Shown piece after piece: positions 6,326 to 35,931 of a stretch of DNA of 64,000 nucleotides. The DNA is from an uncultured Candidatus Saccharibacteria bacterium (lineage in GTDB: Bacteria; Patescibacteriota; Minisyncoccia; Minisyncoccales; CAZKCU01), in NCBI GenBank assembly GCA_964431915.1, contig CAYSLI010000001.1, forward strand, positions 191,824-255,823, given 5' to 3'. Numbering within the stretch: position 1 is the first letter of the stretch; each line of letters begins with the position of its first letter. The notes under the pieces were generated by a model. The model made no database searches. It was not told the DNA's origin and saw only the letters and a list, made by a program, of their open reading frames with translations. The translations under genes and the position numbers were made by a program.

Positions 6326-6365
6326 ACTGGCAAAAGAGATTCGTTTGTTAAATTAGCTAAATCAA

Positions 6366-6395
6366 AGCCCGCCTTCGGCGGGTTTTGATTTTTTA
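6366..6395 (+). terminator. Rho-independent terminator after the pilin gene
   Basis: agcccgcc-ttc-ggcgggtt GC-rich hairpin followed by TTTTGATTTTTT. Confidence 0.7.
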
Positions 6396-6422
6396 CAATT
6401 TAAAGGTTAAAATAGAGAGAAA

Positions 6423-14034: not shown

Positions 14035-14036
14035 TT

Positions 14037-14306: not shown

Positions 14307-14319
14307 AGATTAATTTCCT

Positions 14320-16520
<2,201 letters not shown>

Positions 16521-16521
16521 G

Positions 16522-18458: not shown

Positions 18459-18481
18459 TTTACATTATTTTCATCATCTCA

Positions 18482-19138: not shown

Positions 19139-19192
19139 ATACCGAGCTTCCGAAGGAAGCGAGGGTGAAGATGAAGCTTTAGCTTCATCGCC

Positions 19193-20940
<1,748 letters not shown>

Positions 20941-21150
20941 TAGTGCTTTGGACTTTAGATTTCTCGGTTACTCGAATCGCAATGAAGGGTGAAGAAGAGA
21001 TTTATCTCTTCGCCTACCCGAGTCGCAGCGAAGTCAAAGAGCGCTCCGCACTCTTTTCCACCTTCGTCCCGCAAACGAGACTCGGTGAGTGAAGAAGAAC
21101 GGATGTTCTTCGACTATATTTATAGATGAAGTTTTCCACAATTGTAGCCC

Positions 21151-21179
21151 TTGACAAGGGTGTTTACTTCAAAGATAAT
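21151..21179 (+). promoter_or_regulatory. Sigma70-like promoter for the giant DGR target gene
   Basis: TTGACA (21151-21156), 17 nt spacer, GATAAT. A roughly 230-nt 5' leader follows, containing the palindromes atttcccgtcacgggaaat and acataaaatatttatgt. Confidence 0.45.
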
Positions 21180-21407
21180 GAAATAATCGATTTATTTCCC
21201 GTCACGGGAAATGATTTCCTAAAGAAAAATAAGATAAAAAGATAAAAAAAGAAGACCCGTTTACTCTCTCAAATTTTTTCAAAATTTAAGAGAGCGATAA
21301 GCGCCAAAGATTAGGAAAAAATTAGTCGCTTTTTTGCTGAATACATAAAATATTTATGTGCTTCAGTATGGGTCTTCTGCGTTGAAGTTTACCAAACCTA
21401 AAAGATT

Positions 21408-24400
21408 ATGTCAATAGAGAATAAAAATGAAAATTTAATAAGCATTGAAGAATTTATTGCTAGAGCAAGAAGACTTGGAGTTGATTTTGGAAAAGGTGAC
21501 CCTAAAAATCGTCTGCGCTATTACGTCAAAATCGGTCTTTTGCCACATCTTCAAAGAAAGTCTTTTAACGGTCTGCCTCCAAACGGTGCTTACTTGGAAA
21601 GCACTCTTGGAATTTTGCTTGAGATTGACAAAAAATTAAAAGCCGGAAAGAGTATTCAGGAAATAAAAAGAGAGGAAGAAGAAAAAGTTTTTGAGAAAAA
21701 GCTGCCAAAAATTACTACTCCCCATACATATATGTATGGTCCGGGAATTGAATCTTTTCAGTTAAAAACTGAAGTTCCGCAAACAGAAAAAGAAAAAGGA
21801 GAAGAATTGGAAATCAAAGAAACTCCTGAAATTATTATTGAAAGAAAACCCTTTGTAAAAATACCGGCTATTTTAAAAATTGTGCTTTTGGTTTTAATTT
21901 GCGTTTCAACCCTTTTTTTTACAGATGAAAAAATTAATTTTATAGATCCAATTCCTTATTTTTTAGCTAATATAAGCGAACATATAAGTGGATTTAGAAA
22001 ATTAACTCAATTGCCGGCTTCTTCTCTTCGCGAAGAAGTTTTTAGCCTTCCGGCTGTTGAACCCTATCTTACTATCAATGCTGAAACAGCTATTAACGCT
22101 CTTTTAAAAGCAAAAGAAAAAATAACTGCCCCAAGTTTCGCTTTAATCAGAAATGAATTTGAAGGAAGAATTACTGCTGCCGGACTTACTGTTGAGAGAG
22201 AATATAATTTTCCAGATTTATCCGGAACTGTTTGTTTAGCTACCGGAAATTGTTTTGGTTTAGAAGGAGAAGTAATTACCCTTGGCGGCACCCCCAACAG
22301 ATTAGCTAAATTTATTTCTGCTCAGGAAGTTAGAGATTCTTCAATCAGCGATTTATACCTTGGGGGGGTAGCAATTGCTATTGATTCAGTCGGTAATGTT
22401 GGAATTGGAATTGAAGATCCTGCTCATCCTTTCCATGTTGAGGGAAGGATTCAGGCAACAGGTGATATTTGTACTGATTTGAAAGGCGGCAGGTGTTTGA
22501 GCACTTTGCGGGTTGGTGGTGGTGGAGGAGGAGGTATTGGCGGTTCAGGTTCTGCCAATTATCTTTCAATCTGGACCAGCTCCGGCAGTTTAGGAAATTC
22601 TATTCTCTATCAGACCGGCGGGAATATTGGCATCGGGACGACGGGGCCGGCGGCGACGGCGTTGTTGGACCTCACCTCGACGGAGAAAGGATTTCTTGCC
22701 CCGCGAATGACAGAAGCCCAAAGAGATGCTATCTCTTCACCAGCAACAGGACTTTTCATTTACAACACAACCACCAACCAGTACGACATGTACAACGGAA
22801 CATCATGGGGCGCGGTTGGCGGCGGCGTGCCCACTGACGCCCAGTACGTTACCTTAGCAGTCAATGCCACTTTAACCGATGAAAGAGTCTTAACCGCCGG
22901 AACCAATATTTCAGTAACTGATGGAGGAGCTGGAGGTAATGTAACAATAGCTACCATAAATAATCCTGTTTTCTCAACCTCAGTTACCTCTCCAATTATT
23001 TATGGTTCTTCGGCTGCCTCGGGTAATCTTACTTTAAGAACAACTTCTGATGCTACCAAGGGTTACGTCATTTTAGCTGACGATGGCGGCAACGTCGGCA
23101 TCGGGACGGCAAGCCCTACTTCCCTTTTTTCTGTTGGTGCCTCTTCCCAATTCCAGATAGATACTTCTGGAGATATTATCAAACTAAAAAACCTTACCTA
23201 TTCTTGGCCTTCATCTCATACTGCTGATGGTTTCTTAAAAGATGACGGTTCAGGAACCTTAACCTGGACAACCATTGGCGGAGCAGGAGGAGTAACTGGC
23301 AGCGGAACTGCTGGATACATTCCCAAATGGAGCACCAGCACTACTTTGACTGATTCTGTTTTATATGAAACTGGAGGCAATATTGGCATTGCCACAGCCA
23401 GCCCGGAAGTGGAATTAGATATTGCTGGCCAAGCCAGAATTACCAGCACTACCACTCCCCAGTTATCAGTAAGATACGATGCTGCCAAGTATCTCAATAC
23501 CCTCCTTTCTTCAGGTGAAACCACTTTTCAGACTGGTTTTTCCTCTTTCTTGTTTAAGAGTCTACAGCAAGCAGTTTATTTTTGGACAAGAAAATCTGAC
23601 TGGGATGCCCCTGATGTAGGAACTTATTCTGCTCCTGCCTTTGCCGACTTAGACGATGACGGAGATTATGATTTATTGATTGGAAGATATTATGGACAAA
23701 GCTATGGCTATGAGAACACAGGAACTGTTTCCAGCCCAGCCTGGACAAGAGAATCTGACTGGGATGCTCCTGATATAGGCGATCTTATGCCTGCTCCTGC
23801 CCTTGCCGACTTAGACGATGACGGAGATTATGATTTATTGATTGGAAGCTTTGATGGAATAAGTTATGCCTATGAGAACACCGGAACTGTTTCCAGCCCA
23901 ACCTGGACAAGAAAATCTGACTGGGATGTCTCTGATGTGGGGACTGGGAGTGGCCCTGGCTTTGCCGATTTAGACAATGACGGAGATTATGATTTATTGA
24001 TTAGAGAAATTAGCGGAGTAAGTTTGGGTTATGAGAACACAGGAACTGTTTCCAGCCCAGCCTGGACAAGAGAATCTGACTGGGATGCTCCTAGTGTGGG
24101 ACTTTCTTATTCTTCACCTGCCCTTGCCGACTTAGACGATGACGGAGATTATGATTTATTGACTGGAGCCAGTGGTGATAGAGTTTATGCCTATGAGAAC
24201 ACAGGAACTGTTTCCAGCCCAGCCTGGACAAGAAAATCTGACTGGGATGCTCCTGATGTGGGATCTGCTAGACCTGCCCTTGCCGACTTAGACGATGACG
24301 GAGATGATGATTTATTGATTGGAGCCACTGGTGGAGTAAGTTATGCCTATGAGAACACCGGAAGTGGTGGTCAACTGACTACCCGTTTAGTTATAGACCA

Positions 24401-27400
24401 AGACGGTAAAGTTGGCGTCGCTACGACAGCACCCTATGAAAGATTAGAGGTGGCGGGAGGGACAAGAGTTGGTCAGGCACCGACAACCTATACTACCCTT
24501 TCAGCTGATATGACTGACAGTCAGACTACTGCCACTGTTGCCTCTACCTCTGGTTATCCTTCGGTTGGAACCTTGCTAATTGATTCAGAAGCTATGACTT
24601 ATACAAATAAGAGCGACACCGTGTTTACTGGTTTAACCAGAGGGGCTTTGGGAACAACGGCCGCTACCCATAGTTCAGGAGTAACAGTCAAAAACTATCT
24701 CTTTACTGCCTTAGCTACCGCCACCACTCCTAACATGGTAATAACTGGAGAGGGTAATCTGGGCATCGGGACGACAAATCCTGGGGCCAAGCTCGATCTT
24801 AGCTATACCCAGACAGCAGTTGGAGGAGACGAAGGAATAAGAAGTTTGGTGACCCAAGGAACCAATGCCTTAACAGGCACTCTAAGGGCTGGCTACTTTG
24901 TTGCCACCAACGGAGAACTTGACAGCTCCTCTGGCACTATCAGAGGAATAGAAGTTAAAGCCAGAGCTGCAGGTTCTGACCTGACAGGAGGTTCAGTCGG
25001 CACTCTGGAAGCAATCTCAGCTTCAGCTGATGCTAAGGATGAAACTGTCATCACCTTAAGAGGAGCAGAACTTATCTTAGACGGTCAAACAGGAGCCAGT
25101 GTTACTACAGCTGTCGGCTTAAGGATTGCTAACAACTTCCAGGCAAATATAGCCACTACTTCTTATGGTCTTCAAATCTACCGTGATTCCTTTGACTATA
25201 CAGCTGATATTCAATTATCTTCTGGTGGCACTATTGGTGGCTCCAGCGGAACTTTATCTATCACCAGTGGGGGCAATGTGGGCATCGGGACGGCAACTCC
25301 TTCATCTTTCAAATTACAGATAGCAGGAAGTTTAGGTCCTGATGCTGATAACCAATATGATTTAGGTTCAGCAACAGCCAGATGGAGAGACCTCTATTTG
25401 GGTCCTTCTTCTCTGAATATCTATAATACTACCGGAGCTGACGCCGAATACTTCACTATTGGTTATGATGCTACTCCAACAATTAGCTTTTCTTCCTTAG
25501 CTAATGGTTCAGGTACAGCCAGAAACTTCAACTTTACTGGTGGCAACGTCGGCATCGGCGATACTTCGCCAGCTTCTTTATTAACTGTTGGCTCAGGTGA
25601 TTTATTCCAGGTAGATAGTTCAGGAGACATTGTTAAGATAAAAAACCTTACTTATTCTTGGCCTTCCTCTCACACTACTGACGGTTTCTTAAAAGATGAC
25701 GGTTCAGGGACCTTAACCTGGACAACCATTGCTGGAGCCGGAGGAGTAACTGGAAGCGGAAATGCTGGTTATCTGCCTAAATGGAACACCAGCACTGACT
25801 TGACTGATTCTGTTTTATATGAAACCGGCGGCAACGTCGGTGTTGCCACAGCCAGCCCGGGGGTGGAATTAGATATTGCTGGTCAAGTCAGAGTTACCAG
25901 CACTACTACTCCCCAGTTGTCAGTTAGATACGATGCTAATAAATATCTCGATACTCTTCTTTCTTCAAGTAACGAAATTATTTTTCAGACTAGTTTTGCC
26001 TCCTTCTTGTTTAAAAGCATGCAGTTAGTAGGTTCTTTCTGGACAGCAAAATCCAGCTGGGATGCCCCTGATGTGAGCGCGATTGGCATTTCTGCCCCGG
26101 CCTTTGCTGACTTAGACGATGATGGAGATTATGATTTATTGATTGGAAGATACGAGGGAACAAGCTATAGTTATGAAAACACCGGGAGTGTTTCCAGCCC
26201 AACCTGGACAAGAAAATCCGGCTGGGATGCCCTTGATGATGTGGGAACTTATTCTACCCCAGCTCTTGCTGACTTAGACAATGATGGAGATTATGATTTA
26301 TTGGTTGGAGAGAGCAATGGAATAAGCTATGCCTATGAAAACACCGGAGATGTTTCCAGCCCGACCTGGACAAGAAAATCCGACTGGGATGCTCCTGATA
26401 TGGGAGGTAGTAGTTGTACTTCCCCGGCCTTTGCTGACTTAGACAATGACGGAGATTATGATTTATTGATTGGAGTATATGGTGGGACAAGCCTTGGCTA
26501 TGAAAACACCGGAGATGTTTCCAGCCCAACCTGGGCAGCAAAATCCGACTGGGATGCTCCTTATGTGGGAGCTCGGGCTTCCCCAGCTTTTGCTGACTTA
26601 GACAATGACGGAGATTATGATTTATTGATTGGAGTATGGCCTACTGGAATAAGCTATGGCTATGAAAACATCGGAACTATTTCCAGCCCAACCTGGACAA
26701 GAAAATCCGACTGGGATGCTCCTGATGTGGGAACTTATTCTTCCCCAACTCTTGCTGACTTAGACAATGATGGAGATTATGATTTATTGGTTGGAGAACA
26801 AAGTGGAATAAGCTATGCCTATGAAAACACCTCCGAAGGTCAACTGACTACCCGTTTAGTTATAGACCAAAACGGTAAAGTCGGTGTCGCTACGACAACA
26901 CCCTCTGAAAGATTAGAGGTGGCTGGAGGAACAAGAATTGGTCAGGCACCAACAACTTATACTACCCTTTCAGCTGATATGACTGACAGTCAGACTACTG
27001 CCGCTGTTGCCTCTACCTCTGGTTATCCTTCAGTTGGAACCTTGCTAATTGATTCAGAGGCTATGACTTATACAAACAAAAGTGACACCGTATTTACTGG
27101 TTTAACCAGAGGAGCTTTGGGGACAACGGCCGCTACCCATAGTTCAGGAGCAACAGTTAAAAACTATCTCTTTACTGCTTTAGCTACCAGCACTACTCCC
27201 AATATGGTAATAACTGGAGAGGGTAATCTGGGCATCGGGACAACGAATCCGGGAGCCAAGCTTGATATTTCATATACTCAAACAGCCGCTGGTGGTGATG
27301 AGGGAATCAGGAGTTTGGTAACCCAGGGAACTAATGCCTTAACAGGAACCTTAAGAGGAGGATACTTTGTAGCTACTGATGCAGATTTAACAGGTTCAAC

Positions 27401-29270
27401 AGGAACAGTCAGAGGAATTGAAGCTAAAGCCAGGGCTTCTGATGGAGGCAGTTATTCTCATGGTGTTTTGGAAGCTATATCTGCTTCAGCTGATGCCAAG
27501 GACCAGACAGTAAGTTATCTTAGGGGGGCAGAGATTATGATTGATGGGAAGTCAGGGTTTGATGTAATCAATGAGGCAGTAGGATTAAGAATAGCTAACA
27601 ATCTCCAGGCAGCAGTAACCACAGGTTCTCTTTATGGTCTCCAGATTTACAGGGACAGCTTTGATTACGATGCTGATATTCAGTTATCAAGTGGAGGCTT
27701 GATAGGAGGCAGTGGTGGTCATTTGAATATTGATTCTTCTGGAAATGTCGGCATCGGGACGGCGAGTCCAAATCACTTATTACATCTTTCCGAAACTACT
27801 ACAGCAGCAGGCGGGGATACTCTTTTACGGGTTACTGGCTTGCATACCGATGACACTGCTATGACCGGTACCCTACGGGGAGCATACATTGATATTAGTA
27901 ATGGCATTTTAGCATCAACAGGAACAATCAGGGGTATGGAATTAAAAGCACGCACCGAAGCTCCGGGAGATGAAGGGAATGATGTAGCCGTTCTTGAGGG
28001 TTTGTCAATCAGCGCTGATTCTAAAGACCACAGTGTTACAACAATGCGTGCTGCAGAGTTTATTCTTGATGGTTCTATAGGCGGGACAATCACAGAAGCT
28101 GTGGGCTTAAGAATAGCCAACAATCTTCAAGCCAATAAAGCCACCACTTCTTATGGACTTCAAATCTACCGGGACTCCTTTGATTACACAGCAGATATTC
28201 AATTATCTTCTGGTGGCACAATCGGAGGTTCCGGCGGAGACATGGTTATAGACAGCAGCGGCAGCGTCGGCATCGGGACAATGGGGCCGGATAGAAGACT
28301 CGATGTTTTAGATGCCTCAGCTGCCCAATTAAGGCTTACTTATATTGATAATTCAGTTTATACTGATTTCACTTTAGACACTAACGGAAATTTAACAATT
28401 AACCCGGCTAAAAATATTTATCTTAAATATAGCGCCAATACCGGGTCTAACCTCTGGGTTTGTGAAGGGACGGCTTGTCCTGGCGCAGATACAAGTATGG
28501 GTAGTGGTGGTGGAAATTTAGTGGTTGAAGGAGGAATTTATGGCGGCACCCGCTGTCCTTCGGATATGGTTTATATTCCTGGCGACAAGCCTTTCTGTAT
28601 TGATAAATACGAGGCATACAATTCAAATTCAGGCTCGGTTTGTAATAATACTGATTGTCCCTGTGGTGACGGGACCCAGGCCCAAGTTGATGCTAATACT
28701 ACTATCGCTATTGCCGGTTCTGCTTCAGGGCAAACTCCTTTAGTGTCTATTACTTGGTGTTCGGCTAAAAAGGCCTGTGAAAATACCGGAAAGCACCTGT
28801 GCACAAACCAAGAATGGTCCCAGGCCTGTAATTATAAAGGTGGACAATTTAATATTACTGCCGAAGAAACAGCAGAAACTATGTCCTGCAATACAGCGGA
28901 TGAATGCAGTGGGGCTGCCTGTAATACTGGAGCCAGTTCAGGTTGTGTTACCCAAGAAGGAGCTTATGATATGATTGGTAATGTTTGGGAATGGGTGGAT
29001 AAAGTGGTTACGGCTGACCCGACTAATGGTTTGGGCAGTAACTATGTTACCGGATATGATTTCGCTACGGGTTTGCCCATATCAGTAGGAGCTTCTAGTA
29101 ATGCTTATGGCAATGATTATTACTATGCTTATGATGGCGCAGGAGCGGCTCGCGCCGCTATCCGCGGCGGCGGTTGGACCTATGGCGCGAACGATGGTTG
29201 CTTCTACCTGACTCTGAGCGATGCTCCGTCCAACGCGGACACGCGCCTTGGTTTCCGTTGCTGTCGCTGA
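21408..29270 (+). CDS. Giant (2620 aa) surface protein and DGR variable protein. It has a MerR-like HTH N-terminus, one TM helix, a duplicated block of FG-GAP-type beta-propeller repeats, recurring GNVGIGT motifs, and a C-terminal FGE-sulfatase/C-type-lectin-fold domain that carries the VR.
   Basis: N-terminus IEEFIARARRLGVDFGKG..RLRYYVKIGLLP matches the MerR HTH signature (RYYxxxGLL). TM helix IPAILKIVLLVLICVSTLFF. Twelve repeats of SDWDAPDVG...ADLD(D/N)DGDYDLL(I/V)G...Y(A/G)YENTG, the FG-GAP Ca-binding pattern. C-terminus MVYIPG...GNVWEWV...RGGGW...GFRCCR shows FGE-sulfatase hallmarks. Confidence 0.85.
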   Translation: MSIENKNENLISIEEFIARARRLGVDFGKGDPKNRLRYYVKIGLLPHLQRKSFNGLPPNGAYLESTLGILLEIDKKLKAGKSIQEIKREEEEKVFEKKLPKITTPHTYMYGPGIESFQLKTEVPQTEKEKGEELEIKETPEIIIERKPFVKIPAILKIVLLVLICVSTLFFTDEKINFIDPIPYFLANISEHISGFRKLTQLPASSLREEVFSLPAVEPYLTINAETAINALLKAKEKITAPSFALIRNEFEGRITAAGLTVEREYNFPDLSGTVCLATGNCFGLEGEVITLGGTPNRLAKFISAQEVRDSSISDLYLGGVAIAIDSVGNVGIGIEDPAHPFHVEGRIQATGDICTDLKGGRCLSTLRVGGGGGGGIGGSGSANYLSIWTSSGSLGNSILYQTGGNIGIGTTGPAATALLDLTSTEKGFLAPRMTEAQRDAISSPATGLFIYNTTTNQYDMYNGTSWGAVGGGVPTDAQYVTLAVNATLTDERVLTAGTNISVTDGGAGGNVTIATINNPVFSTSVTSPIIYGSSAASGNLTLRTTSDATKGYVILADDGGNVGIGTASPTSLFSVGASSQFQIDTSGDIIKLKNLTYSWPSSHTADGFLKDDGSGTLTWTTIGGAGGVTGSGTAGYIPKWSTSTTLTDSVLYETGGNIGIATASPEVELDIAGQARITSTTTPQLSVRYDAAKYLNTLLSSGETTFQTGFSSFLFKSLQQAVYFWTRKSDWDAPDVGTYSAPAFADLDDDGDYDLLIGRYYGQSYGYENTGTVSSPAWTRESDWDAPDIGDLMPAPALADLDDDGDYDLLIGSFDGISYAYENTGTVSSPTWTRKSDWDVSDVGTGSGPGFADLDNDGDYDLLIREISGVSLGYENTGTVSSPAWTRESDWDAPSVGLSYSSPALADLDDDGDYDLLTGASGDRVYAYENTGTVSSPAWTRKSDWDAPDVGSARPALADLDDDGDDDLLIGATGGVSYAYENTGSGGQLTTRLVIDQDGKVGVATTAPYERLEVAGGTRVGQAPTTYTTLSADMTDSQTTATVASTSGYPSVGTLLIDSEAMTYTNKSDTVFTGLTRGALGTTAATHSSGVTVKNYLFTALATATTPNMVITGEGNLGIGTTNPGAKLDLSYTQTAVGGDEGIRSLVTQGTNALTGTLRAGYFVATNGELDSSSGTIRGIEVKARAAGSDLTGGSVGTLEAISASADAKDETVITLRGAELILDGQTGASVTTAVGLRIANNFQANIATTSYGLQIYRDSFDYTADIQLSSGGTIGGSSGTLSITSGGNVGIGTATPSSFKLQIAGSLGPDADNQYDLGSATARWRDLYLGPSSLNIYNTTGADAEYFTIGYDATPTISFSSLANGSGTARNFNFTGGNVGIGDTSPASLLTVGSGDLFQVDSSGDIVKIKNLTYSWPSSHTTDGFLKDDGSGTLTWTTIAGAGGVTGSGNAGYLPKWNTSTDLTDSVLYETGGNVGVATASPGVELDIAGQVRVTSTTTPQLSVRYDANKYLDTLLSSSNEIIFQTSFASFLFKSMQLVGSFWTAKSSWDAPDVSAIGISAPAFADLDDDGDYDLLIGRYEGTSYSYENTGSVSSPTWTRKSGWDALDDVGTYSTPALADLDNDGDYDLLVGESNGISYAYENTGDVSSPTWTRKSDWDAPDMGGSSCTSPAFADLDNDGDYDLLIGVYGGTSLGYENTGDVSSPTWAAKSDWDAPYVGARASPAFADLDNDGDYDLLIGVWPTGISYGYENIGTISSPTWTRKSDWDAPDVGTYSSPTLADLDNDGDYDLLVGEQSGISYAYENTSEGQLTTRLVIDQNGKVGVATTTPSERLEVAGGTRIGQAPTTYTTLSADMTDSQTTAAVASTSGYPSVGTLLIDSEAMTYTNKSDTVFTGLTRGALGTTAATHSSGATVKNYLFTALATSTTPNMVITGEGNLGIGTTNPGAKLDISYTQTAAGGDEGIRSLVTQGTNALTGTLRGGYFVATDADLTGSTGTVRGIEAKARASDGGSYSHGVLEAISASADAKDQTVSYLRGAEIMIDGKSGFDVINEAVGLRIANNLQAAVTTGSLYGLQIYRDSFDYDADIQLSSGGLIGGSGGHLNIDSSGNVGIGTASPNHLLHLSETTTAAGGDTLLRVTGLHTDDTAMTGTLRGAYIDISNGILASTGTIRGMELKARTEAPGDEGNDVAVLEGLSISADSKDHSVTTMRAAEFILDGSIGGTITEAVGLRIANNLQANKATTSYGLQIYRDSFDYTADIQLSSGGTIGGSGGDMVIDSSGSVGIGTMGPDRRLDVLDASAAQLRLTYIDNSVYTDFTLDTNGNLTINPAKNIYLKYSANTGSNLWVCEGTACPGADTSMGSGGGNLVVEGGIYGGTRCPSDMVYIPGDKPFCIDKYEAYNSNSGSVCNNTDCPCGDGTQAQVDANTTIAIAGSASGQTPLVSITWCSAKKACENTGKHLCTNQEWSQACNYKGGQFNITAEETAETMSCNTADECSGAACNTGASSGCVTQEGAYDMIGNVWEWVDKVVTADPTNGLGSNYVTGYDFATGLPISVGASSNAYGNDYYYAYDGAGAARAAIRGGGWTYGANDGCFYLTLSDAPSNADTRLGFRCCR
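23088..28260 (+). repeat. Intragenic tandem duplication: two ~2.45/2.2-kb near-identical blocks (about 23088-25541 and 25542-27740) plus a partial third copy (27741-28260)
   Basis: Anchor ggcaacgtcggcatcgg recurs at 23088 and 25542, with gaaatgtcggcatcggg at 27741 and cagcgtcggcatcggg at 28258. Protein blocks are about 85-90% identical (TYSWPSSHT(A/T)DGFLKDDGSGTLTWTTI..., six FG-GAP blades, ...LQIYRDSFDY(T/D)ADIQLSSGG). Confidence 0.8.
29146..29268 (+). repeat. DGR variable region (VR), the last ~41 codons of the giant gene
   Basis: 123-bp match to the TR at 29705-29827 (offset 559). All 17 mismatches fall at TR adenines. The 3'-terminal 21 nt (ttggtttccgttgctgtcgct) are A-free and identical to the TR. 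Confidence 0.85.
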
Positions 29271-29328
29271 AGGGGTTTAAATTTAATCTAAAATCTAATT
29301 TCTGAAAATCTAAAACTAAAAACATCAA

Positions 29329-29667
29329 ATGTTATATGATTTACACCTATTTCAAAAAGTATATGATTTCCTTTTATGGATAAAACCCACTGTTCAGAGA
29401 TTTACTAAAGTTCATAAATATAGCTTAGGTATTCAATTAGAAAATGAAGTAATAGAACTTTTAAAACAAATTGTTAGAGCTAATTTTCAAAAAGGCAACA
29501 AAAGAGAACTTATCGAAGAATGTTTTGTTCATTACGAAATTATTAAAGTTTTAATAAGATTAGGTAGAGAGTTCAATCTTTTAAATAAGAGTCAATACGA
29601 ATTTGTGGCAAAAGAATTAGTTGAAATAGGAAAATTATTGGGTGGTTGGTACAAAAGATTTTCTTAA
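29329..29667 (+). CDS. avd: DGR accessory variability determinant Avd (four-helix-bundle protein)
   Basis: 112 aa. Aligns with Bordetella phage Avd and the 23S-rRNA-IVS family, e.g. ...KELVEIGKLLGGWYKR versus the Avd C-terminal EVGRILGSWIAR pattern. Located between VR and TR as in canonical DGRs. Confidence 0.8.
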   Translation: MLYDLHLFQKVYDFLLWIKPTVQRFTKVHKYSLGIQLENEVIELLKQIVRANFQKGNKRELIEECFVHYEIIKVLIRLGREFNLLNKSQYEFVAKELVEIGKLLGGWYKRFS

Positions 29668-29704
29668 TTTGCTATCTACTTTTAGTAGGTAGAGGGATAA
29701 AATC

Positions 29705-29827
29705 AAAATCGCGCCGCTATCCGCGGCGGCAATTGGAACAATGGCGCGAACGATGGTTGCTTCAACCTGAATCTGAACAATGCTCCGTCCAACACGAACA
29801 CGAACATTGGTTTCCGTTGCTGTCGCT
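29705..29827 (+). repeat. DGR template repeat (TR), non-coding
   Basis: Translation in the VR frame gives IRGGNWNNGANDGCFNLNLNNAPSNTNTNIGFRCCR, with AAC codons at every position that differs in the VR (VR: IRGGGWTYGANDGCFYLTLSDAPSNADTRLGFRCCR). Confidence 0.85.
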
Positions 29828-29955
29828 TCAGTGATTCATTAAATAATTGGCCAGAATTCTTATCTTAATTGAGATGAGAAGCGTGCCGTTAAACCCCAGA
29901 TTTTATTCCTTCTTAAGTAAGTTAAAGGTTGAAAAGGAAAATATTAAGCCTGTAT

Positions 29956-29996
29956 CCCGAGGAAGTAGGAGTAGGAAAGGAAACTTCTTCCTCGGG
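29956..29996 (+). promoter_or_regulatory. 10-bp-stem hairpin in the TR-RT spacer (candidate DGR RNA structural/priming element)
   Basis: cccgaggaag-N21-cttcctcggg. A second imperfect hairpin, cttatctt-aatt-gagatgag, lies at 29863-29882 just 3' of the TR. Confidence 0.4.
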
Positions 29997-30031
29997 TTAA
30001 TAGGCTTTACTCCGTTAGATAAAAAAGATAA

Positions 30032-31111
<1,080 letters not shown>

Positions 31112-31128
31112 ATTATTTAATTTAAACT

Positions 31129-32244
31129 ATGTTTCAAAAAATTATTAATTTTTTTAAATATCATAATGCTTTTGCCATTGGCATCAGTTTAGTTTTAGTT
31201 TTAACTTTTTCTGCGATGGCGTCGGAGGATGTTAGAAATGCCGTGATTGGCGAAAAGATTGTTACAGAGCAAGGCGTAGATAACTCCCAACTCCTACCTG
31301 TTGATTTAGATAATTTTGATGTAGATTTAAAAATTGACAATGTTTTAGAAGATGAAGAAAATTATTACATTGATTATAGTTTTAATACAATAGCGGTCAG
31401 GGATAATGTCTGGCAGCCAGTTGTTAAAGCAGAAAAATTTACCGTGAATAAAAATGCCTTGGGAAATAGGGACTTGGGAATTTATTTAGCCGAGGAATTA
31501 GGAGAAGTAGCTCAAGCTGAAATTACTTATTTGAAAAAAGCTCAAAAAACTGAAAGAGAAAGGGGACTAACTCAGATTGTTAGAACTACGGATTATACCG
31601 GACTAATTGGTTTAACCCTTGATTTAAAAAACAAAGTTCTACCTGGCTATGAACCGGTTATTAAGCCACCAGCAATTGAGATTGCTCAGATTACTCAACC
31701 TTTAATTATTGAAGAGCCTCCTATTATTGAAAAACCGGTTGTTGAAGAACTTGTTTGCCAGCCATCAGAAGAAATCTGCGATGGTGCGGATAACAATTGT
31801 GATGGTCAAATAGACGAAGGCGGCGTTTGCCCCAAAGAAGAGCCTTTGGCTCCCTCCGGGGCAGGTGAAGCAGCACCGGTAGCTGAACCTATTTGCGATG
31901 TAGACCATTTAGATTTGTGTACTACTCAAGAGTTATGTGAAGGAGTTAGTTTATATTGGTACAATGAAATTTGCAACTTAGAGCCAGAAACTCCTGCCTG
32001 CCAGCCAACAGGGGAGGTTTGTGACGGCATAGACAATGACTGTGATGAATTAATTGATGAAGATTTAGGCCAAGCTACTTGCGGAGTGGGGGCTTGTGCA
32101 GTAACCATAGATAATTGTATAGGTGGTCAATCCCAAACTTGTACTCCCGGAACTCCCACTGAGGAAATCTGCGACCAGATAGACAATAATTGTGATGGCC
32201 AAATTGATGAAGGAAGTGTCTGTGTAGAACCTCCAACCGAATAA
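31129..32244 (+). CDS. Secreted Cys-rich protein with four CDGxDNxCDGxIDE(G) repeats (MopE-like putative metal-binding motif)
   Basis: Signal peptide. Repeats CDGADNNCDGQIDEGGVC, CDGIDNDCDELIDED, CDQIDNNCDGQIDEGSVC and others. Confidence 0.6.
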   Translation: MFQKIINFFKYHNAFAIGISLVLVLTFSAMASEDVRNAVIGEKIVTEQGVDNSQLLPVDLDNFDVDLKIDNVLEDEENYYIDYSFNTIAVRDNVWQPVVKAEKFTVNKNALGNRDLGIYLAEELGEVAQAEITYLKKAQKTERERGLTQIVRTTDYTGLIGLTLDLKNKVLPGYEPVIKPPAIEIAQITQPLIIEEPPIIEKPVVEELVCQPSEEICDGADNNCDGQIDEGGVCPKEEPLAPSGAGEAAPVAEPICDVDHLDLCTTQELCEGVSLYWYNEICNLEPETPACQPTGEVCDGIDNDCDELIDEDLGQATCGVGACAVTIDNCIGGQSQTCTPGTPTEEICDQIDNNCDGQIDEGSVCVEPPTE

Positions 32245-32304
32245 CCGAAAATAGGTGCAAAAATAAGTGTCAACTCTGTTTTTCTTTAACAACTTTTATA
32301 GAAT

Positions 32305-32620
32305 ATGGAAATTCGTATTTTCGATAAATCTTTAGAGAAATTTATTAAGAATCTGCAAAAGCCAACAATTGCTAAACTTTTGCGAACAACTAATTTACTT
32401 GAGAAATTTGGTCAGAAATTAGGGCCGGCCCCATACGAAGAAAATTTCAACTCGCCCTTTTGAGCTTAGAATTTCTGGTAAACAGGAAGTCAGAATTTTT
32501 TACAGTTTTTATAAATCGCGGATTTTTCTTATACACGGCTTTGTTAAAAAATCACAAAAAATCCCTCAGAGAGAAGTTAGGACGGCTTTCCAAAAATTAA
32601 GACTACTTGACAAGGTATAA
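32305..32620 (+). pseudogene. higB: HigB/Gp49-family (RelE/ParE superfamily) toxin, frameshifted
   Basis: MEIRIFDKSLEKFIKNLQKPTIAKLLRTTNLLEKFGQKLGPAPY... reaches a stop at 32461. The +1 frame continues ...KISTRPFELRISGKQEVRIFYSFYKSRIFLIHGFVKKSQKIPQREVRTAFQKLRLL (classic HigB C-terminus). A frameshift lies near 32440. Confidence 0.6.
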
Positions 32621-32642
32621 CATATACGTTATATAGAAGTTA

Positions 32643-32933
32643 GTGCGTATGAAAAAGAAAACTTACAAACAACTAAAAAAGGAGTTATTAAAAGATAAAA
32701 AAACTAAACAGCTCTATGAGAAATTGGGGCCAGAGTTCGCGGTGATTGAAATGATTATTAAAAAAAGGATTGAGAAGGGGTTGAGTCAAAAAGAACTTGC
32801 CAGAAAAATCGGCACCAAACAATCGGCTGTTTCCCGGCTGGAATCGGGAACTTACAATCCCAGCCTTTCTTTTCTGCAGAAAGTAAGTGAAGCCTTAGAT
32901 GTGAAATTAAAAATTTCTTTGGCAGCGAGATAA
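32643..32933 (+). CDS. higA: HigA-like XRE-family HTH antitoxin
   Basis: HTH_3 motif LSQKELARKIGTKQSAVSRLESG. Immediately downstream of the higB remnant. Confidence 0.7.
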   Translation: MRMKKKTYKQLKKELLKDKKTKQLYEKLGPEFAVIEMIIKKRIEKGLSQKELARKIGTKQSAVSRLESGTYNPSLSFLQKVSEALDVKLKISLAAR

Positions 32934-32993
32934 AAAAGTGAGGTCTATTTTATTTGATTGACATTACTTCCAAAAAGATTAAAATTAAAGTGT

Positions 32994-33212
32994 ATGACTA
33001 ATTCTTCAAAAACAATAACCTTATCGAAAGCCCTAATTCAAAGGAAAAAGGGAATAGCGATTTTACCTTTGGAAGAATACGAAAGAATCAAAGAAGATTT
33101 AGAAATGCTTCAATCAAAGAGATTGGCAAAAGAAATTGAGAAGGCAAGAAAAGAAGTAAAATCTGGGAACGTAATAAGATTAGAAGAATTGGAAAGGAAA
33201 TTAAATTTATAG
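32994..33212 (+). CDS. Phd/YefM- or RelB-type antitoxin
   Basis: ...IAILPLEEYERIKEDLEMLQ...KEVKSGNVIRLEEL pattern. Start likely at the internal Met (MTNSSKT). Confidence 0.5.
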   Translation: MTNSSKTITLSKALIQRKKGIAILPLEEYERIKEDLEMLQSKRLAKEIEKARKEVKSGNVIRLEELERKLNL

Positions 33213-33222
33213 ATTCTCTGTT

Positions 33223-33474
33223 ATGAGATTAATTTTTACGAGGATAGCTTTTCATCAATTTCAAAAATTAAACCGCCCTGCTTAGAAAAGAATTGATGAA
33301 AAGCTACGTTTTTATTTATCTCAGCAAAATCCTCTGAAATTTGCCGAACCTTTAAGAGACCCTAAATTCGGAGATTGGAGGTTTCGAATCGGAGATTATA
33401 GAGTCCTTTTTGATGTTGAAGATAATAAAATTGTTGTTTTAAAAGTAGAGCATCGAAAAAACATTTATAAATAA
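33223..33474 (+). pseudogene. relE: RelE/ParE-family toxin with an in-frame TAG at codon 21
   Basis: MRLIFTRIAFHQFQKLNRPA*KRIDEKLRFYLSQQNPLKFAEPLRDPKFGDWRFRIGDYRVLFDVEDNKIVVLKVEHRKNIYK, with TAG at 33283-33285. The rest of the frame is intact and shows the typical RelE motif (YRLRVGDYRIIY-like). Confidence 0.6.
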
Positions 33475-33486
33475 TTCGCAAAAAAT

Positions 33487-35931
33487 ATGAAACTTCCAAT
33501 AAAAATTAATTCAAATAATAATCTTCCTAAAAAAACTTCTCTGAGACAAAAGAGGTCTTCTGTTAAAACCGAGCCCATTCGACTGGCTCAGGGCAAGGAA
33601 ACTCCAGATACTAAAATCCAGATTCTCAAGAAGGTTAAGCTCTGGGATAAAATTGCCAAGGTTAGTATCTATCTTTTAGTATTTCTAACGCCTCTATTTT
33701 TTCTTCCTTGGACTCTTAACGTTCTTGATTTTAACAAGCAGGCCTTGATGGGGATTTTAGTAATTTTAGCCCTTTTTGCCTGGATTTTGAAAATTTTGGT
33801 TTCTGGCAAATTTGAATTTAATCTAAGCTGGCTTTCTCTTCCGATAGTAATAATGCTGGTGGTTTATGGGATTTCAACCCTTTTTTCTTTTTGGCCTTAT
33901 GGAAGTTTTTGGGGCTGGCCGCTTAATGTTAGCGCCGGATTTTTGACCCTACTTTATTTCGTATTTTTGTATTTTTTAATCGCCAATGTTTTTACAAAAA
34001 AGCAAGAGATTTTTCGGCTTTTTCTTACTTTAGTTAGTTCAGGATTTTTAGCAGCAGTCTTTGGCGGGCTTCAACTCTTTAGTAAATTTATCTTACCATG
34101 GGATTTTACCAGAATTATCTCTTTTAACACCATCGGAACAGTAAATTCGCTGGCCATATTTTTAGCTATTTTGCTTCCTTTGACAATTATCTTACAGCTT
34201 ATTGCGAAAAAGTGGATGCGGATGATGTTAGCGATTTTTGCCTTGGTAATGTTAGTTAGTTTAGTTTTGGTTAATTTTTGGGCGGCCTGGTTGGTTTTAA
34301 TCGCGGGGGCAGCAATACTTTTTATTTTTCAGATGCTTAACATTAAGGCTATTCATGGTGGCGGGATTCAGCTCTCAATAGCTCTTTTAATTATTGCTTT
34401 GTTTTTCGTTATTTTTAGGATTTCTTTGCCCGGCCTTCCCCAAACTCCATTTGAAGTTTCCCCAAGCCAGAGAGCAGAAATCAGTATTGCCGCAAACACT
34501 CTATCTAAATCTCCTATTTTGGGTACGGGACCGGGAAGTTTTGTCTATAATTTCTCAAAATTTAAATCAAAAGACCTGAACCAGACAATTTTTTGGAATG
34601 TCAGGTTTGTATCAGGTGCTTCAGAAATTCTTGATAAATTAATCACCACCGGAATTCTGGGAGTTCTTTCTTTAATTTCTATTTTTGGAATGTTTTTCTG
34701 GCTGGGTTTTAGATATTTAAGAGAAAAAGCCAGAGATATAATAGATGGAGCACCTTTCCTGTTTGGGCTGGGAATTTTTTCGTCTTTTGGCGGAATAGTC
34801 TTGAGCCAATTTCTCTATCCTGCTAATTTTTCTTTAGCTTTAGTTTTTTGGATATTGCTGGCAGGATTTACAGCGCTTGATAAAAGAAAAATTAAATCTT
34901 GGGAGATTAGCCCTGGTTCTTCTCTGGTGGTAGGATTATCTTTTTGCTTAGTTTTGGTTTTAATTTTTGGCATTGGACTTCTTTTCCTTGGAACCCAAAA
35001 ATATATGTCCGAAATAAAGTATTTTCAGGGATTGAGAGATTGGCAAGCGGGCCAAACAGAGCAGGCGATTTCACGTCTAAAAGCAGCAATTAATTTAAAT
35101 CCAAGCTTAGACGTCTATTGGCGAGATATCTCCCAGCTTTATTTAGTAAGATTAGACGAAGTTTTGCAGAGGGCTGACTTAAAGGAGATGACTTCCGAGG
35201 ACCAAATTCTTATGACTGGAGCTATAGATTCGGCAAAAGAGGCAACCAGATTAAATGAAGTTAATGTCGCTAATTGGAATGTCAGAGGATTCATTTATCG
35301 GAATATGATGGGAATAGTTGAAGGCGCCGGGGACTGGGCCCTGAATTCCTATCAGAAGGCAGGGGAATTGGAGCCTACAAATCCTTATATATTTACTGAA
35401 ATTGGCAGAATTTATATTTCAAAATTTGATTTAGGTGAAGGAGAGAGGCAAGAAAATTTAAGATTAGCTTTAGAAAGTTTTGAGCGGTCCCTTCAGCTTA
35501 AAGAGGATTATGCTCCAGCCCATTTCCAGATTGCGATGATTTATGTTAGAGAGGGAAAAACTAAGGAGGCAATAGATAAAATTGAGACAATCAAAGAGGT
35601 AGCACCGCTTGATGCAGGTCTCGCCTTTCAATTAGGTGTTATTTATTACAATGATAATCAGTTTGACAAGGCGAAAGGAGAATTTCAAAGAGCGATAAGA
35701 TTAGATGGAAATTATTCCAATGCCCGTTATTTTCTGGGATTGATTTATGACCGGGAGGAAAATAAAAAGGGAGCAATTTTGCAATTTGAAAGGATTGAAA
35801 AATTAAACCCCGAAAATTCAGAAGTTAAAAAGATTTTGGCTAATTTAAGAGCTGGAAAGCCGGCTTTAGAAGGGATTGAGCCAAGCCAGCCCCCAATTGA
35901 AGAAGCGCCCCCAGAAAGATTAGAGAAGTAA
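33487..35931 (+). CDS. Polytopic membrane protein with O-antigen-ligase/Wzy_C-like domain and C-terminal TPR repeats
   Basis: About 12 TM helices. ILGTGPGSF motif of the O-antigen ligase family. The C-terminal ~300 aa are TPR-like (AxxxY/F periodic repeats). Confidence 0.55.
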   Translation: MKLPIKINSNNNLPKKTSLRQKRSSVKTEPIRLAQGKETPDTKIQILKKVKLWDKIAKVSIYLLVFLTPLFFLPWTLNVLDFNKQALMGILVILALFAWILKILVSGKFEFNLSWLSLPIVIMLVVYGISTLFSFWPYGSFWGWPLNVSAGFLTLLYFVFLYFLIANVFTKKQEIFRLFLTLVSSGFLAAVFGGLQLFSKFILPWDFTRIISFNTIGTVNSLAIFLAILLPLTIILQLIAKKWMRMMLAIFALVMLVSLVLVNFWAAWLVLIAGAAILFIFQMLNIKAIHGGGIQLSIALLIIALFFVIFRISLPGLPQTPFEVSPSQRAEISIAANTLSKSPILGTGPGSFVYNFSKFKSKDLNQTIFWNVRFVSGASEILDKLITTGILGVLSLISIFGMFFWLGFRYLREKARDIIDGAPFLFGLGIFSSFGGIVLSQFLYPANFSLALVFWILLAGFTALDKRKIKSWEISPGSSLVVGLSFCLVLVLIFGIGLLFLGTQKYMSEIKYFQGLRDWQAGQTEQAISRLKAAINLNPSLDVYWRDISQLYLVRLDEVLQRADLKEMTSEDQILMTGAIDSAKEATRLNEVNVANWNVRGFIYRNMMGIVEGAGDWALNSYQKAGELEPTNPYIFTEIGRIYISKFDLGEGERQENLRLALESFERSLQLKEDYAPAHFQIAMIYVREGKTKEAIDKIETIKEVAPLDAGLAFQLGVIYYNDNQFDKAKGEFQRAIRLDGNYSNARYFLGLIYDREENKKGAILQFERIEKLNPENSEVKKILANLRAGKPALEGIEPSQPPIEEAPPERLEK

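Follow-up and report, generated by a model that had tools for sequence, protein, structure and literature searches.

The giant gene of the window, by which we mean the whole 64,000-nt stretch of DNA that was analysed, encodes a bona fide DGR target. We put at roughly 60% the probability that its product is a DGR-diversified, host-binding adhesin carried on an autoregulatory, membrane-tethered scaffold similar to TnrA/GlnR, which would bind DNA and signal. The protein would be a giant surface adhesin, anchored as a type II protein (N-in, C-out) in the membrane of a CPR bacterium similar to Ca. Nealsonbacteria. Its sequence is a mosaic of three parts, namely a lineage-wide scaffold, recombining extracellular cassettes and a strain-specific 3′ graft, the last of which comprises a CLec module of the type found in small DGR targets, an Avd-TR-RT cassette and decayed toxin-antitoxin genes. 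The gene is the sole long ORF at its place and starts with ATG. HTH, TM, FG-GAP and CLec follow each other along the protein (Table 1), which bears out the single giant ORF and the architecture that the initial annotation had described.

Table 1. Features of the giant gene, its leader and its 3′ neighbourhood (window positions)
Feature	Position	Strand	Basis or remark
Distal copy of family-linked palindrome, TTCCCGCGGCGGGAA	20837..20851	.	571 nt upstream of giant gene
Predicted sigma-70-type promoter, TTGACA-17-GATAAT	21151..21179	+	11/12 consensus match
Proximal 17-bp palindrome, TTTCCCGTCACGGGAAA, candidate operator	21195..21211	.	centre about +17 of predicted promoter
Conserved structured RNA element in leader: 9-bp closing stem and 2-3 hairpins	21250..21378	.	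folding, comparison
Giant DGR target gene, 2620 aa	21408..29270	+	ORF call, Pfam domains; identical NCBI protein P0160
aa 1-95, cytoplasmic MerR-fold winged helix-turn-helix, TnrA/GlnR/RacA-like minimal form	21408..21692	+	family profile, model
aa 96-151, cytoplasmic linker rich in E/K/P	21693..21860	+	composition; sequence varies among homologues
aa 152-172, single transmembrane helix, N-in, C-out signal anchor	21861..21923	+	hydrophobicity; 79/80 loci
aa 175-560, family stalk (PYLTINAETAI..FPDLSGTVCL..GNVGIG, Gly run)	21930..23087	+	homologue comparison
aa 726-990, FG-GAP block A, five Ca-motif repeats	23583..24377	+	Pfam, motif count, model
aa 1545-1810, FG-GAP block B, five Ca-motif repeats, inside duplicated block B	26040..26837	+	Pfam, motif count
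aa 2322-2620, C-terminal module: fibre-like motif and CLec/FGE-sulfatase fold	28371..29267	+	Pfam aa 2414-2620
VR (variable repeat), aa 2582-2620	29150..29268	+	repeat comparison
Avd, DGR accessory protein	29329..29667	+	PF22296, NCBIfam
TR (template repeat), 11 AAY codons	29709..29827	+	repeat comparison
DGR reverse transcriptase (IGNLTSQ, YMDD)	30032..31111	+	RVT_1, motifs
Rest of strain-specific island	31129..33486	+	no counterpart in sister L081
Secreted MopE-repeat protein	31129-32244	+	Pfam MopE
Frameshifted HigB-like ORFs and XRE antitoxin-like ORF	32305-32933	+	NCBIfam XRE; toxin remnants by eye only
Phd-like ORF and RelE-like remnant	32958-33486	+	toxin remnant by eye only
Polytopic membrane protein with C-terminal TPR repeats	33487..35931	+	conserved downstream partner of HTH-TM genes

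DGRs vary a ligand-binding face by retroelement-driven rewriting at adenine-templated positions. In the 119-nt VR/TR pair, all internal mismatches (13/13) fall at TR adenines, in codon positions 1 or 2. Avd scored above the cut-offs of both PF22296 (5.7e-17, 62.6 bits against 40) and the NCBIfam equivalog NF033474 DivGenRetAVD (81 bits against 80). The RT matched RVT_1 at 4.7e-21, with the motifs IGNLTSQ (aa 204) and YMDD (aa 236); its top NCBIfam match was a group II intron RT, below the cut-off of that model. At the extreme C-terminus, where an FGE-sulfatase/CLec tip had been proposed, PF03781 matched aa 2414-2620 at 6e-12, with 46.2 bits where 23.3 are required.

These features are shared with known DGR systems: adenine-restricted differences between TR and VR that fall in the first two codon positions, AAY codons, an Avd-TR-RT cassette directly downstream and an RT with the I/LGxxxSQ motif. 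As in the targets with a CLec variable region (Bordetella phage Mtd, Treponema TvpA, Legionella LdtA and small CPR targets), the VR lies at the extreme C-terminus in a predicted PF03781-type fold. The size of the target is unusual, as the initial annotation had supposed. The 87 nearest relatives of the CLec module are proteins of just 190-514 aa, all but two with PF03781 and with a signal peptide on the complete N-termini inspected, and the window target is about 5-10 times larger. CPR clade-2 DGR targets typically have no recognisable TM or other domain (Roux et al., PMC8144416), whereas in the protein studied here a clear signal anchor, propeller repeats of the FG-GAP type and, on the cytoplasmic side, a DNA-binding fold can be recognised. 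The DGR would rewrite 13-plus adenine-templated positions in the last 39 residues, so that the ligand-binding face at the distal tip may vary. Between two assemblies, the sole difference in 2620 aa is N2609S, a single event at a TR-templated mutable AAC codon, which is suggestive of DGR activity.

The part of the protein that lies outside the cell is repetitive. Identity between block A (aa ~560-1300) and block B (aa ~1378-2120) is 68-95%, and an extracellular unit of ~190 aa is present in three copies. These duplications, which include the two five-repeat FG-GAP blocks, make up the recombining extracellular cassettes. The FG-GAP assignment is supported by PF01839 (2.5e-29, 101 bits against a Pfam cut-off of 22.1) and FG-GAP_3, PF13517 (5e-20, 72 bits against 26.9). 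The Ca-binding motif ADLD[DN]DGD[YD]DLL occurs 10 times, 5 times per block. Thus, of the two sets of six blades (at least 12 in total) read earlier from the sequence, the two duplicated blocks hold, and the count is actually 5+5. The repeats of a relative (P0162) likewise come in sets of five.

The model of block A, the sole usable one among five (pLDDT 67), has 5 x 4 strands and reached TM-scores of 0.3-0.5 in Foldseek comparison with 7-bladed propellers, so the blade number given here is that of the repeat count and not of a confident closed structure. The protein shares FG-GAP repeats with the DxDxDGxxD Ca loop, as well as Foldseek hits, with integrin-alpha and FG-GAP propeller lectins (PVL, CRTAC1, ITFG2, UmbA). 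Integrin-type propellers have seven repeats, whereas five Ca-motif repeats per block were found here instead of a closed seven-bladed propeller.

The GNVGIGT-type motif, already noticed as a recurring xGNVGIGTxxP element, was counted 12 times. It is shared with tail-fibre-like giant surface proteins (PF26696 "PTL_trimer", often with Peptidase_S74), some of which were named tail-fibre, trimeric autotransporter adhesin or cell-wall surface-anchored protein by their sources. PF26696 is a precomputed assignment on the window protein and about 40 giant relatives; our local Pfam copy gave no match. Most PF26696 giants differ in missing the HTH-TM anchor, and a DGR tip is present on none of those retrieved. 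The stalk is 38-57% identical to family members of 590-1000 aa. In the literature we found no work joining DGR with FG-GAP and none on the GNVGIGT motif.

Domains and taxonomy lead us to infer the adhesin function and the host. The 90% cluster of RpoB includes a Ca. Nealsonbacteria MAG, and Nealsonbacteria attach to Methanothrix as episymbionts (bioRxiv 10.1101/2022.04.20.488981). This makes the episymbiont adhesin suggested by the initial annotation plausible. The same tip could instead be a diversified receptor for other targets, serving as a phage decoy or in defence, in particle or polysaccharide capture or in contact-dependent antagonism. Cellular DGR targets in general have been assigned to cell-particle, cell-cell or virus-cell interactions, with virus-host arms races possible (PMC8144416), and lectins as well as a lectin subunit of a Streptomyces umbrella toxin are among the proteins that resemble the FG-GAP block best in structure. 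However, Pfam and NCBIfam searches found no toxin, peptidase or nuclease domains in the protein, and the documented lifestyle of Nealsonbacteria is episymbiotic. We regard such other targets as rather unlikely.

A sister genome allowed us to compare the whole locus. There (L081) the gene order is that of the window: ATP synthase operon, IS1595, giant gene, TPR, rpoB, rpoC and ftsK. The sister orthologue (P0161, 3298 aa) is 100% identical to the window protein over aa 1-1298. CLec, Avd, TR and RT are all absent from the sister locus, in which window positions 28371-33596 have no counterpart and the giant gene directly adjoins, on its 3′ side, the gene of the TPR membrane protein. Since the sister orthologue has neither the CLec tip nor the DGR, the tip, the cassette and the decayed toxin-antitoxin genes make up one ~5-kb indel. 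The syntenic comparison indicates that CLec and DGR are a strain-specific 3′ graft; the indel may have arisen by gain here or by loss in the sister. RT, Avd, CLec and a propeller of the window type were found in none of the 80 loci or 159 family proteins compared. The usual C-terminal module of the family (..VPVKVS..GDxLTSSS..GVAMKA.. and a terminal F.W.V.N domain) is present in the sister orthologue, in many giants and in short members; in the window protein the CLec module takes its place. The TPR membrane protein is homologous (E 1e-58 to 1e-36) to the product of the +1 gene in 39 short-class loci. The GC content of the giant gene is 45%. We rejected foreign origin as the cause of this value, as GC3 matches that of rpoB and the excess sits at codon position 2 (0.51-0.55).

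Single-sequence searches with aa 1-110 gave no match in PDB and only sub-threshold ones in Pfam, so we looked for relatives of the HTH with a family profile. In 11 close homologues, conservation starts at residue ~8. From 1.84e9 proteins the profile recovered 319 representatives, and in nearly every one the domain lies within residues 1-100. In GTDB genomes we found 97 loci, nearly all in Patescibacteria, and kept 80 for comparison. The window protein matches the family consensus, that is GxDFGKGDPxNRLRYYxKIGLLP..RK at residues 1-100 followed by exactly one TM. Its TM segment (Kyte-Doolittle 2.62, K/R flank on the N-side and D/E flank on the C-side) is the one hydrophobic segment in the entire protein, in agreement with the single helix predicted after the HTH, and one TM at aa ~100-175 is present in 79 of the 80 homologous loci kept. 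Pfam and NCBIfam hold no model for this hitherto undescribed wHTH-TM anchor family, which is defined here. As judged from these comparisons, the HTH-TM anchor and a fibre-like stalk form a lineage-wide scaffold of hundreds of Patescibacteria proteins, from 220 to >3400 aa.

The initial annotation had called the HTH MerR-like. This holds for the fold, which is a MerR-type winged HTH, and for its N-terminal, cytoplasmic position; it does not hold for the defining dimerisation helix and the promoter logic. The long antiparallel coiled-coil helix of MerR is absent. The model ends in short helices (65-78 and 83-94), after which a non-conserved E/K/P-rich linker runs up to the TM at 152. Domain searches found no MerR-type C-terminal effector-binding region, the TM helix and the ectodomain following instead. 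MerR operators lie within a -35/-10 spacer of 19-20 bp, whereas the spacers predicted here are 16-18 bp and the palindrome described below lies outside them.

Closer in form are TnrA and GlnR, the nitrogen regulators of Bacillus, with a minimal winged HTH of the MerR family. These are soluble proteins of ~85-135 aa controlled by glutamine synthetase, while the window HTH, which would likewise bind DNA, is tethered through a linker and TM to an extracellular protein; the sites differ as well (TGTNA-N7-TNACA for TnrA/GlnR, TTTCCCGT-N-ACGGGAAA here). RacA, the chromosome anchor of B. subtilis, also has a MerR-like HTH, but it is peripheral via DivIVA, contains a coiled coil and has about 25 origin-proximal sites, in contrast to the window protein, whose TM anchor is integral and whose candidate sites, just 1-2 in number, lie at its own locus. 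Membrane-bound one-component factors of the ToxR/CadC type have a common topology with the window protein. CadC begins with a cytoplasmic DNA-binding domain, from which a linker leads to one TM helix, and its sensing domain is extracytoplasmic (PMC5430869). ToxR-like proteins have an OmpR-type winged helix and small periplasmic sensors, whereas the window HTH has the MerR-type fold, and not the OmpR-type one, and carries a repetitive, DGR-diversified ectodomain of 2,450 aa. Our search for literature on membrane-anchored MerR proteins returned nothing relevant beyond CadC.

Upstream of the giant gene we found a 17-bp palindrome, which has only 2 matches in the 64 kb (expected 0.11), both upstream of this gene. 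Across ~1.2 Mb of related loci, 24/29 family genes of mid-size or giant length have it 17-400 nt upstream, and ~24/51 short ones have it 8-56 nt past the stop codon; outside these positions it occurs almost nowhere. Many related loci have a second copy 360-1400 nt upstream. In a reverse test, the HTH was encoded within 35-1065 nt in 17 of the 119 metagenome stretches with the exact palindrome (17/45 where GC was <0.46). The arrangement TTGACA-17-GATAAT is also found upstream of homologous genes. Relative to TTGACA-N16-18-TAnnnT promoters, where promoters and transcription start sites are consensus predictions, the palindrome centre lies near -52 in 12 loci, near -61 in 11 loci and at +12 to +19 in 14 loci (15 sites). 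Co-occurrence and position argue for the palindrome as a candidate operator of the tethered HTH. We rejected two other roles, that of an intrinsic terminator (no U-tract after the palindrome) and that of a DNA-uptake sequence (merely 1-2 copies per 10-64 kb).

A different regulator may read the palindrome, the MerR-fold domain being a cytoplasmic protein-interaction or biogenesis module that does not bind DNA. Two palindrome loci (L087 and L100) have the TPR gene and no MerR-like HTH nearby, so another factor could read the site there. Additionally, if the extracellular part is trimeric, as the PTL_trimer assignment would have it, the fit with a dimeric operator is poor. We consider it unlikely that the domain is such a module and the palindrome is read by a different regulator. 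As a biogenesis module, such a domain could for example recruit DnaJ/Hsp70-type chaperones or insertion machinery for a very long signal-anchored protein.

It is less probable still that the palindrome is an RNA hairpin (a 5′-end stabiliser, or one acting in processing or attenuation) which forms an RNA-level leader with the adjacent structured element and makes the HTH irrelevant. The palindrome occupies +9 to +25 of the predicted transcript in the window and in 13 further loci, and a strongly structured conserved element comes after it. This element has an MFE of -46.3 kcal/mol (z -7.15), and its closing stem keeps pairing through compensatory changes in 3/9 pairs across 14 loci. MAFFT and RNAalifold recovered the closing stem alone because the inner hairpins are not sequence-alignable. 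Rfam searches of the upstream region (gathering cut-off and E <= 10) gave chance-level matches only and no family. The summed MFE of the two strands was -593 versus -606 kcal/mol, and the G-U versus C-A asymmetry favoured each strand in one lineage; the element may thus be a plus-strand leader or a minus-strand sRNA from a candidate promoter at 21414-21386. Against an RNA hairpin, 22 loci have the palindrome at -52 or -61, where it precedes the -35 box and is therefore untranscribed from that promoter, and these two positions are one helical turn apart. Variants are one-sided (TTCTCG or CGAGAA), no compensatory changes were seen in the arms across related loci, the would-be loop T-N-A is itself palindromic, and a U-tract follows on neither strand.

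That the HTH is an annotation artefact, with the true start downstream (e.g. M109) or two genes fused by assembly error, is effectively refuted: a Shine-Dalgarno motif is absent upstream of 21408, but the genome is almost devoid of such motifs anyway, no in-frame start lies between codons 1 and 109, the order N-terminus-HTH-linker-TM recurs in 79/80 independent loci as well as in the majority of the 150 representatives listed, and the N-terminal 1298 aa are identical in two independent assemblies and the sister genome. The ribosome-binding site, which the initial annotation had proposed as the check on a mis-called N-terminus, cannot discriminate here because the genome nearly lacks Shine-Dalgarno sites. 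Comparison of upstream 25-mers revealed the motif in almost none of 39 window genes, several of which have TATAAT right before the ATG. We used N-terminal conservation instead. The entire HTH and the first ~10 residues are conserved in homologues, with the domain at residues 1-100 in nearly all of the 150 listed and of 80 genomic loci, and we reject a mis-called N-terminus.

On the preferred reading of a diversified adhesin on an autoregulatory scaffold, the cytoplasmic HTH would bind the palindrome as a dimer. The site at about +17 of the gene's own promoter suggests that the protein, either nascent or already inserted in the membrane, would act as the repressor of the very costly gene that encodes it. 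In relatives, a site at -52 or -61 could activate the family gene or the downstream gene of the TPR membrane protein. Such regulation would be nearer to the site-position logic of TnrA/GlnR than to the canonical spacer distortion of MerR. The family-linked promoter palindrome lends indirect support to the suggestion that the HTH couples ligand binding to transcription. More speculatively, tip occupancy or proteolytic release may modulate DNA binding. The protein might even be a one-molecule sense-and-respond device of the Notch or ToxR kind, which we consider doubtful. In such a device, the DGR-randomised lectin tip, reaching some 2,400 residues beyond the cell, would engage the host surface, and the signal would pass through clustering, tension or regulated proteolysis, so that host contact at the DGR tip would alter operator occupancy and with it the protein's own and partner envelope genes.

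CPR DGR targets have been described without recognisable membrane or functional domains, which left their location open (PMC8144416). The window protein is a clear membrane-anchored, surface-exposed CPR DGR target with adhesin-type domains. The sister genome appears to document the chimeric fusion that was only hypothesised in that work, and offers a tangible example of how new diversified receptors have been proposed to arise, namely by fusion of a CLec tip to any domain. The members of an unannotated Patescibacteria family (220 to >3400 aa) are defined by their wHTH-TM anchor and have a tightly linked palindromic promoter element, and the analysis yields testable reagents, a 95-aa domain and a 17-bp site. 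If the HTH reads the palindrome, it would stand for membrane-tethered regulators of a new class, in organisms about whose regulation and host recognition almost nothing is known. If the sense-and-respond device were real, an ultra-small episymbiont with very few regulators would wire host contact straight to transcription, and the wHTH-TM proteins would be membrane-tethered transcription factors of a class not described before, spread across the Patescibacteria lineage and having an operator of their own and perhaps a small or leader RNA associated with them.

The window has a GC content of 34%. The presence of rpoB, rpoC, ftsK, recA and an ATP-synthase operon shows that it belongs to a bacterial chromosome; a 'Candidatus Nealsonbacteria' MAG is among the members of its RpoB cluster (90% identity). 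The giant protein gave Pfam matches above cut-offs for the FG-GAP (2.5e-29), FG-GAP_3 (5e-20) and FGE-sulfatase/CLec (6e-12, aa 2414-2620) domains expected from the initial annotation; MerR reached a sub-threshold score only. The GC content of the gene (45%) is owed to codon position 2 (Gly, Ala, Thr and Ser richness), and a foreign origin was rejected as its explanation.

That this protein is the target of a DGR was borne out by a neighbouring Avd gene, the RT motifs and the VR/TR pair, in which 13 of 13 internal mismatches fall at TR adenines, mostly in AAY codons and always at the first or second codon position. In such systems the RT makes adenine-specific errors as it copies the TR RNA, and replacement of the VR by this cDNA varies the ligand-binding face. 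A second assembly of the protein (P0214) differs at 1 of 2620 residues, N2609S, in an AAC codon templated by a TR AAC; this is a single event of the kind that DGR activity predicts. The product of the gene is a giant surface protein that has a signal anchor and a CLec tip diversified by the DGR.

Features of the giant gene and its surroundings (window coordinates)
Feature	Position	Strand	Remarks
257-aa protein	19193-19966	-	Signal peptide, C-terminal TM helices
IS1595-family transposase	20001-20771	-	DDE_Tnp_IS1595 and zinc ribbon; between 257-aa membrane-protein gene and giant gene
Palindrome cores	20837-20851, 21196-21210		Both upstream of giant gene
Structured RNA element	21250-21378 (flanks 21235-21385)		Between palindrome/promoter and start codon; MFE z = -7.15
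Predicted sigma-70-like promoter	21386-21414	-	TTGACA-17-TAAACT; -35 box overlaps giant gene ATG
Giant gene	21408-29270	+	Single ORF, 2620 aa
Stretch absent from L081	28371-33596		CLec module, Avd, TR, RT, MopE-repeat secreted protein, XRE antitoxin-like ORF, frameshifted/eroded toxin remnants (by eye)
VR	29150-29268	+	Final 39 codons of giant gene; 119-nt repeat shared with TR
Avd	29329-29667	+	Above NCBIfam DGR-Avd equivalog cut-off
TR	29709-29827	+	119-nt repeat partner of VR
RT	30032-31111	+	DGR-typical IGNLTSQ motif, YMDD
MopE protein	31129-32244		371 aa, secreted; three CxxxDNxCDGxxDE 'MopE' metal-binding motifs, Pfam 3.9e-14
HigB/Gp49-like toxin, frameshift-split	32305-32463, 32460-32600		By-eye reading; 5' of XRE antitoxin-like ORF
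XRE antitoxin-like ORF	32643-32933		NCBIfam HTH matches
Phd-like ORF	32958-33212		84 aa; then RelE-like remnant without intact ORF (by eye)
Gene starts exemplifying SD-poor window	43059, 47454, 48516, 56864		

Almost none of the 39 window genes has a Shine-Dalgarno motif, so a ribosome-binding-site test gives no verdict on the start of the HTH. In several genes a TATAAT-like box stands 6-12 nt 5' of the ATG, suggesting that this genome produces mRNAs with no leader or a very short one.

Conservation is more telling. The alignment of aa 1-200 with 11 homologues starts at residue ~8 and includes an invariant G..G.G.P..RLRY..K.GLLP...R. A profile of aa 1-95 matched 319 representative proteins out of 1.84 billion (253 at E <= 1e-10), of ~80 to 3068 aa, and nearly every match lies within residues 1-100. 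Among 185,579 species genomes scanned there were 97 HTH loci, nearly all of them in Patescibacteria (Nealsonbacteria, Pacebacteria, WWE3, Woykebacteria and others). On this conservation, the N-terminal HTH is real. It lacks the MerR coiled-coil and effector region, and is therefore a minimal winged HTH like those of TnrA, GlnR and RacA rather than a canonical MerR regulator. The single TM helix proposed to follow it was recovered at aa 152-172, the only strong hydrophobic segment (Kyte-Doolittle 2.62, positive charges on its N-side); ORFs of 79 of the 80 loci kept for analysis have exactly one such helix, 100-175 residues in.

Beyond the anchor, a 'stalk' (aa 175-560) shares 38-57% identity with family members of 590-1000 aa. 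Blocks A (aa ~560-1300) and B (aa ~1378-2120) are 68-95% identical, and a ~190-aa unit occurs three times in the protein. Each block holds five FG-GAP repeats with the ADLD[DN]DGD[YD]DLL Ca loop, ten in total, instead of the at least 12 blades in two 6-blade sets counted initially; the rest of that description of the gene was confirmed. A model of block A has 5 x 4 strands at a pLDDT of only 67, with FG-GAP and lectin propellers as Foldseek neighbours (TM 0.3-0.5), and the repeats of a distant relative (P0162) likewise come in fives. The twelve xGNVGIGTxxP motifs match the precomputed Pfam family PF26696 'PTL_trimer', common to many tail-fibre-like giant proteins.

The syntenic sister locus L081 (JGI 3300031554) is arranged like the window: ATP synthase, IS1595, giant gene, TPR, rpoB, rpoC, ftsK. 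Its giant orthologue P0161 (3298 aa) is 100% identical to the window protein across aa 1-1298 and divergent beyond, where it carries seven BNR/Asp-box-like repeats and the usual family C-terminal module; a CLec domain is missing, and its gene is immediately followed by that for TPR. Near its C-terminus is a Cys-rich 'CDATHLTLCTTQAECE' stretch resembling the MopE protein, which itself belongs to the island missing in the sister genome. RT, Avd, CLec or this propeller were found in 0 of 80 family loci and 0 of 159 family proteins. The CLec module has its 87 nearest relatives in proteins of 190-514 aa, and the complete ones inspected have a signal peptide and one GNVGIGT motif. The sister comparison and these small relatives suggest that a small-target-type DGR module was joined to a resident giant surface-protein gene here, or else was lost from the sister. 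Such a chimeric route has been proposed by Roux et al. (PMC8144416), who noted that CPR DGR targets usually lack a recognisable TM or other domain; the window target, in contrast, has TM, FG-GAP and HTH. The end of the island (32305-33486) holds apparent decayed type II toxin-antitoxin pairs, their toxins called by eye only.

Over 11.6 kb, window 13656-25291 and L081 2274-13884 are 97.8% identical, and both outer flanks ~91.8%. The stretch covers ATP synthase, IS1595 and codons 1-1295 of the giant gene. These identities suggest a recent homologous-recombination patch that ends inside this gene, where the repeat cassettes start differing. The IS1595 transposase occupies the same site in the sister genome and is missing from other family loci.

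Upstream regions of family genes share the palindrome TTTCCCGT-N-ACGGGAAA, whose core occurs twice in the window (0.11 expected). Across ~1.2 Mb of related loci, 24 of 29 mid-size or giant family genes have it 17-400 nt upstream, or else it stands 8-56 nt past the stop of ~24 of 51 short (~220-aa) ones, thus before a conserved TPR membrane-protein gene; about six matches fall >100 nt off these positions, distal second upstream copies excepted. Conversely, 17 of 119 metagenome stretches with the exact palindrome encode the HTH within 35-1065 nt (17 of 45 at GC <0.46), and two more have the palindrome upstream of a TPR gene. The HTH-TM gene alone is common to both neighbourhood types, and this co-occurrence makes its product the prime candidate reader of the palindrome.

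Measured from the best TTGACA-N16-18-TAnnnT predicted promoter, the palindrome centre lies at about -52 in 12 loci, at about -61 in 11, and at +12 to +19 for 15 sites from 14 loci, among them the window (+17). An RNA hairpin would suit the downstream sites, but many palindromes stand upstream of the promoter and are therefore not transcribed from it. These upstream copies, the offset of one helical turn between two position classes, the one-sided arm variants and the symmetric centre favour a dimeric protein operator.

The structured element, found in at least 16 related loci and without an Rfam match, is closed by a 9-10-bp stem (AGAAGRCCC/GGGYCTTCT) that shows compensatory changes; it contains one hairpin of variable sequence and another whose loop is conserved (plus-strand CCAAGGUCGAAAA). 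The minus-strand promoter faces it, and its end on that strand is a U7-9 tract. The element may serve as a leader on the plus strand or, on the minus strand, as an sRNA of ~130 nt antisense to that leader. Most mid-size family loci keep the CTTGACAA motif of this minus-strand promoter 0-40 nt 5' of the start codon. The GC-richer stretch 20940-21120, which separates the distal palindrome from the promoter, repeats GAAGAAGA and CGAGTCGCA motifs, with no ORF or Rfam match.

The 257-aa protein, matched by no Pfam or NCBIfam model, shares a module with the usual C-terminus of giant family members and is the conserved upstream neighbour in 10 mid-size family loci (57-69% identity); two further loci match it at ~35% identity. 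Short HTH-TM genes (L027-L080, ~220 aa) combine HTH, TM and the giants' ~90-aa terminal domain. Their neighbourhood is conserved: upstream lie DprA (-1, divergent), ComM-like Mg-chelatase (-2), ArsR (-3), ComEA-like (-4) and ComEC (-5/-6), and downstream the TPR polytopic gene (+1), then Obg, M23 peptidase, Rho and sortase; this association with DNA-uptake genes could reflect function or merely lineage synteny. At locus L100, a 1390-aa protein (2772-6944) with an integrase SAM-like core-binding-domain-like N-terminus (by eye) takes the place of the HTH-TM gene, and the palindrome (2708-2724) comes after it, just in front of the TPR polytopic gene. PF02899 (precomputed Pfam) also occurs on two giant PTL_trimer proteins, P0177 and P0189. 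Giants of this sort may bear other DNA-binding folds in place of the HTH at their N-terminus.

We infer that the cytoplasmic HTH would bind the candidate +17 operator and repress its own 7.9-kb gene; in relatives, binding at -52 or -61 could activate. The site-position logic of TnrA offers a parallel. That tip occupancy or proteolytic release is coupled to DNA binding is speculative. The initial interpretation is supported in part. Its domains and the documented attachment of Nealsonbacteria to Methanothrix (bioRxiv 10.1101/2022.04.20.488981) argue for a host-adhesin role. The giant protein is a variant that is both DGR target and candidate membrane-tethered transcription factor; its scaffold belongs to a Patescibacteria family not described before.
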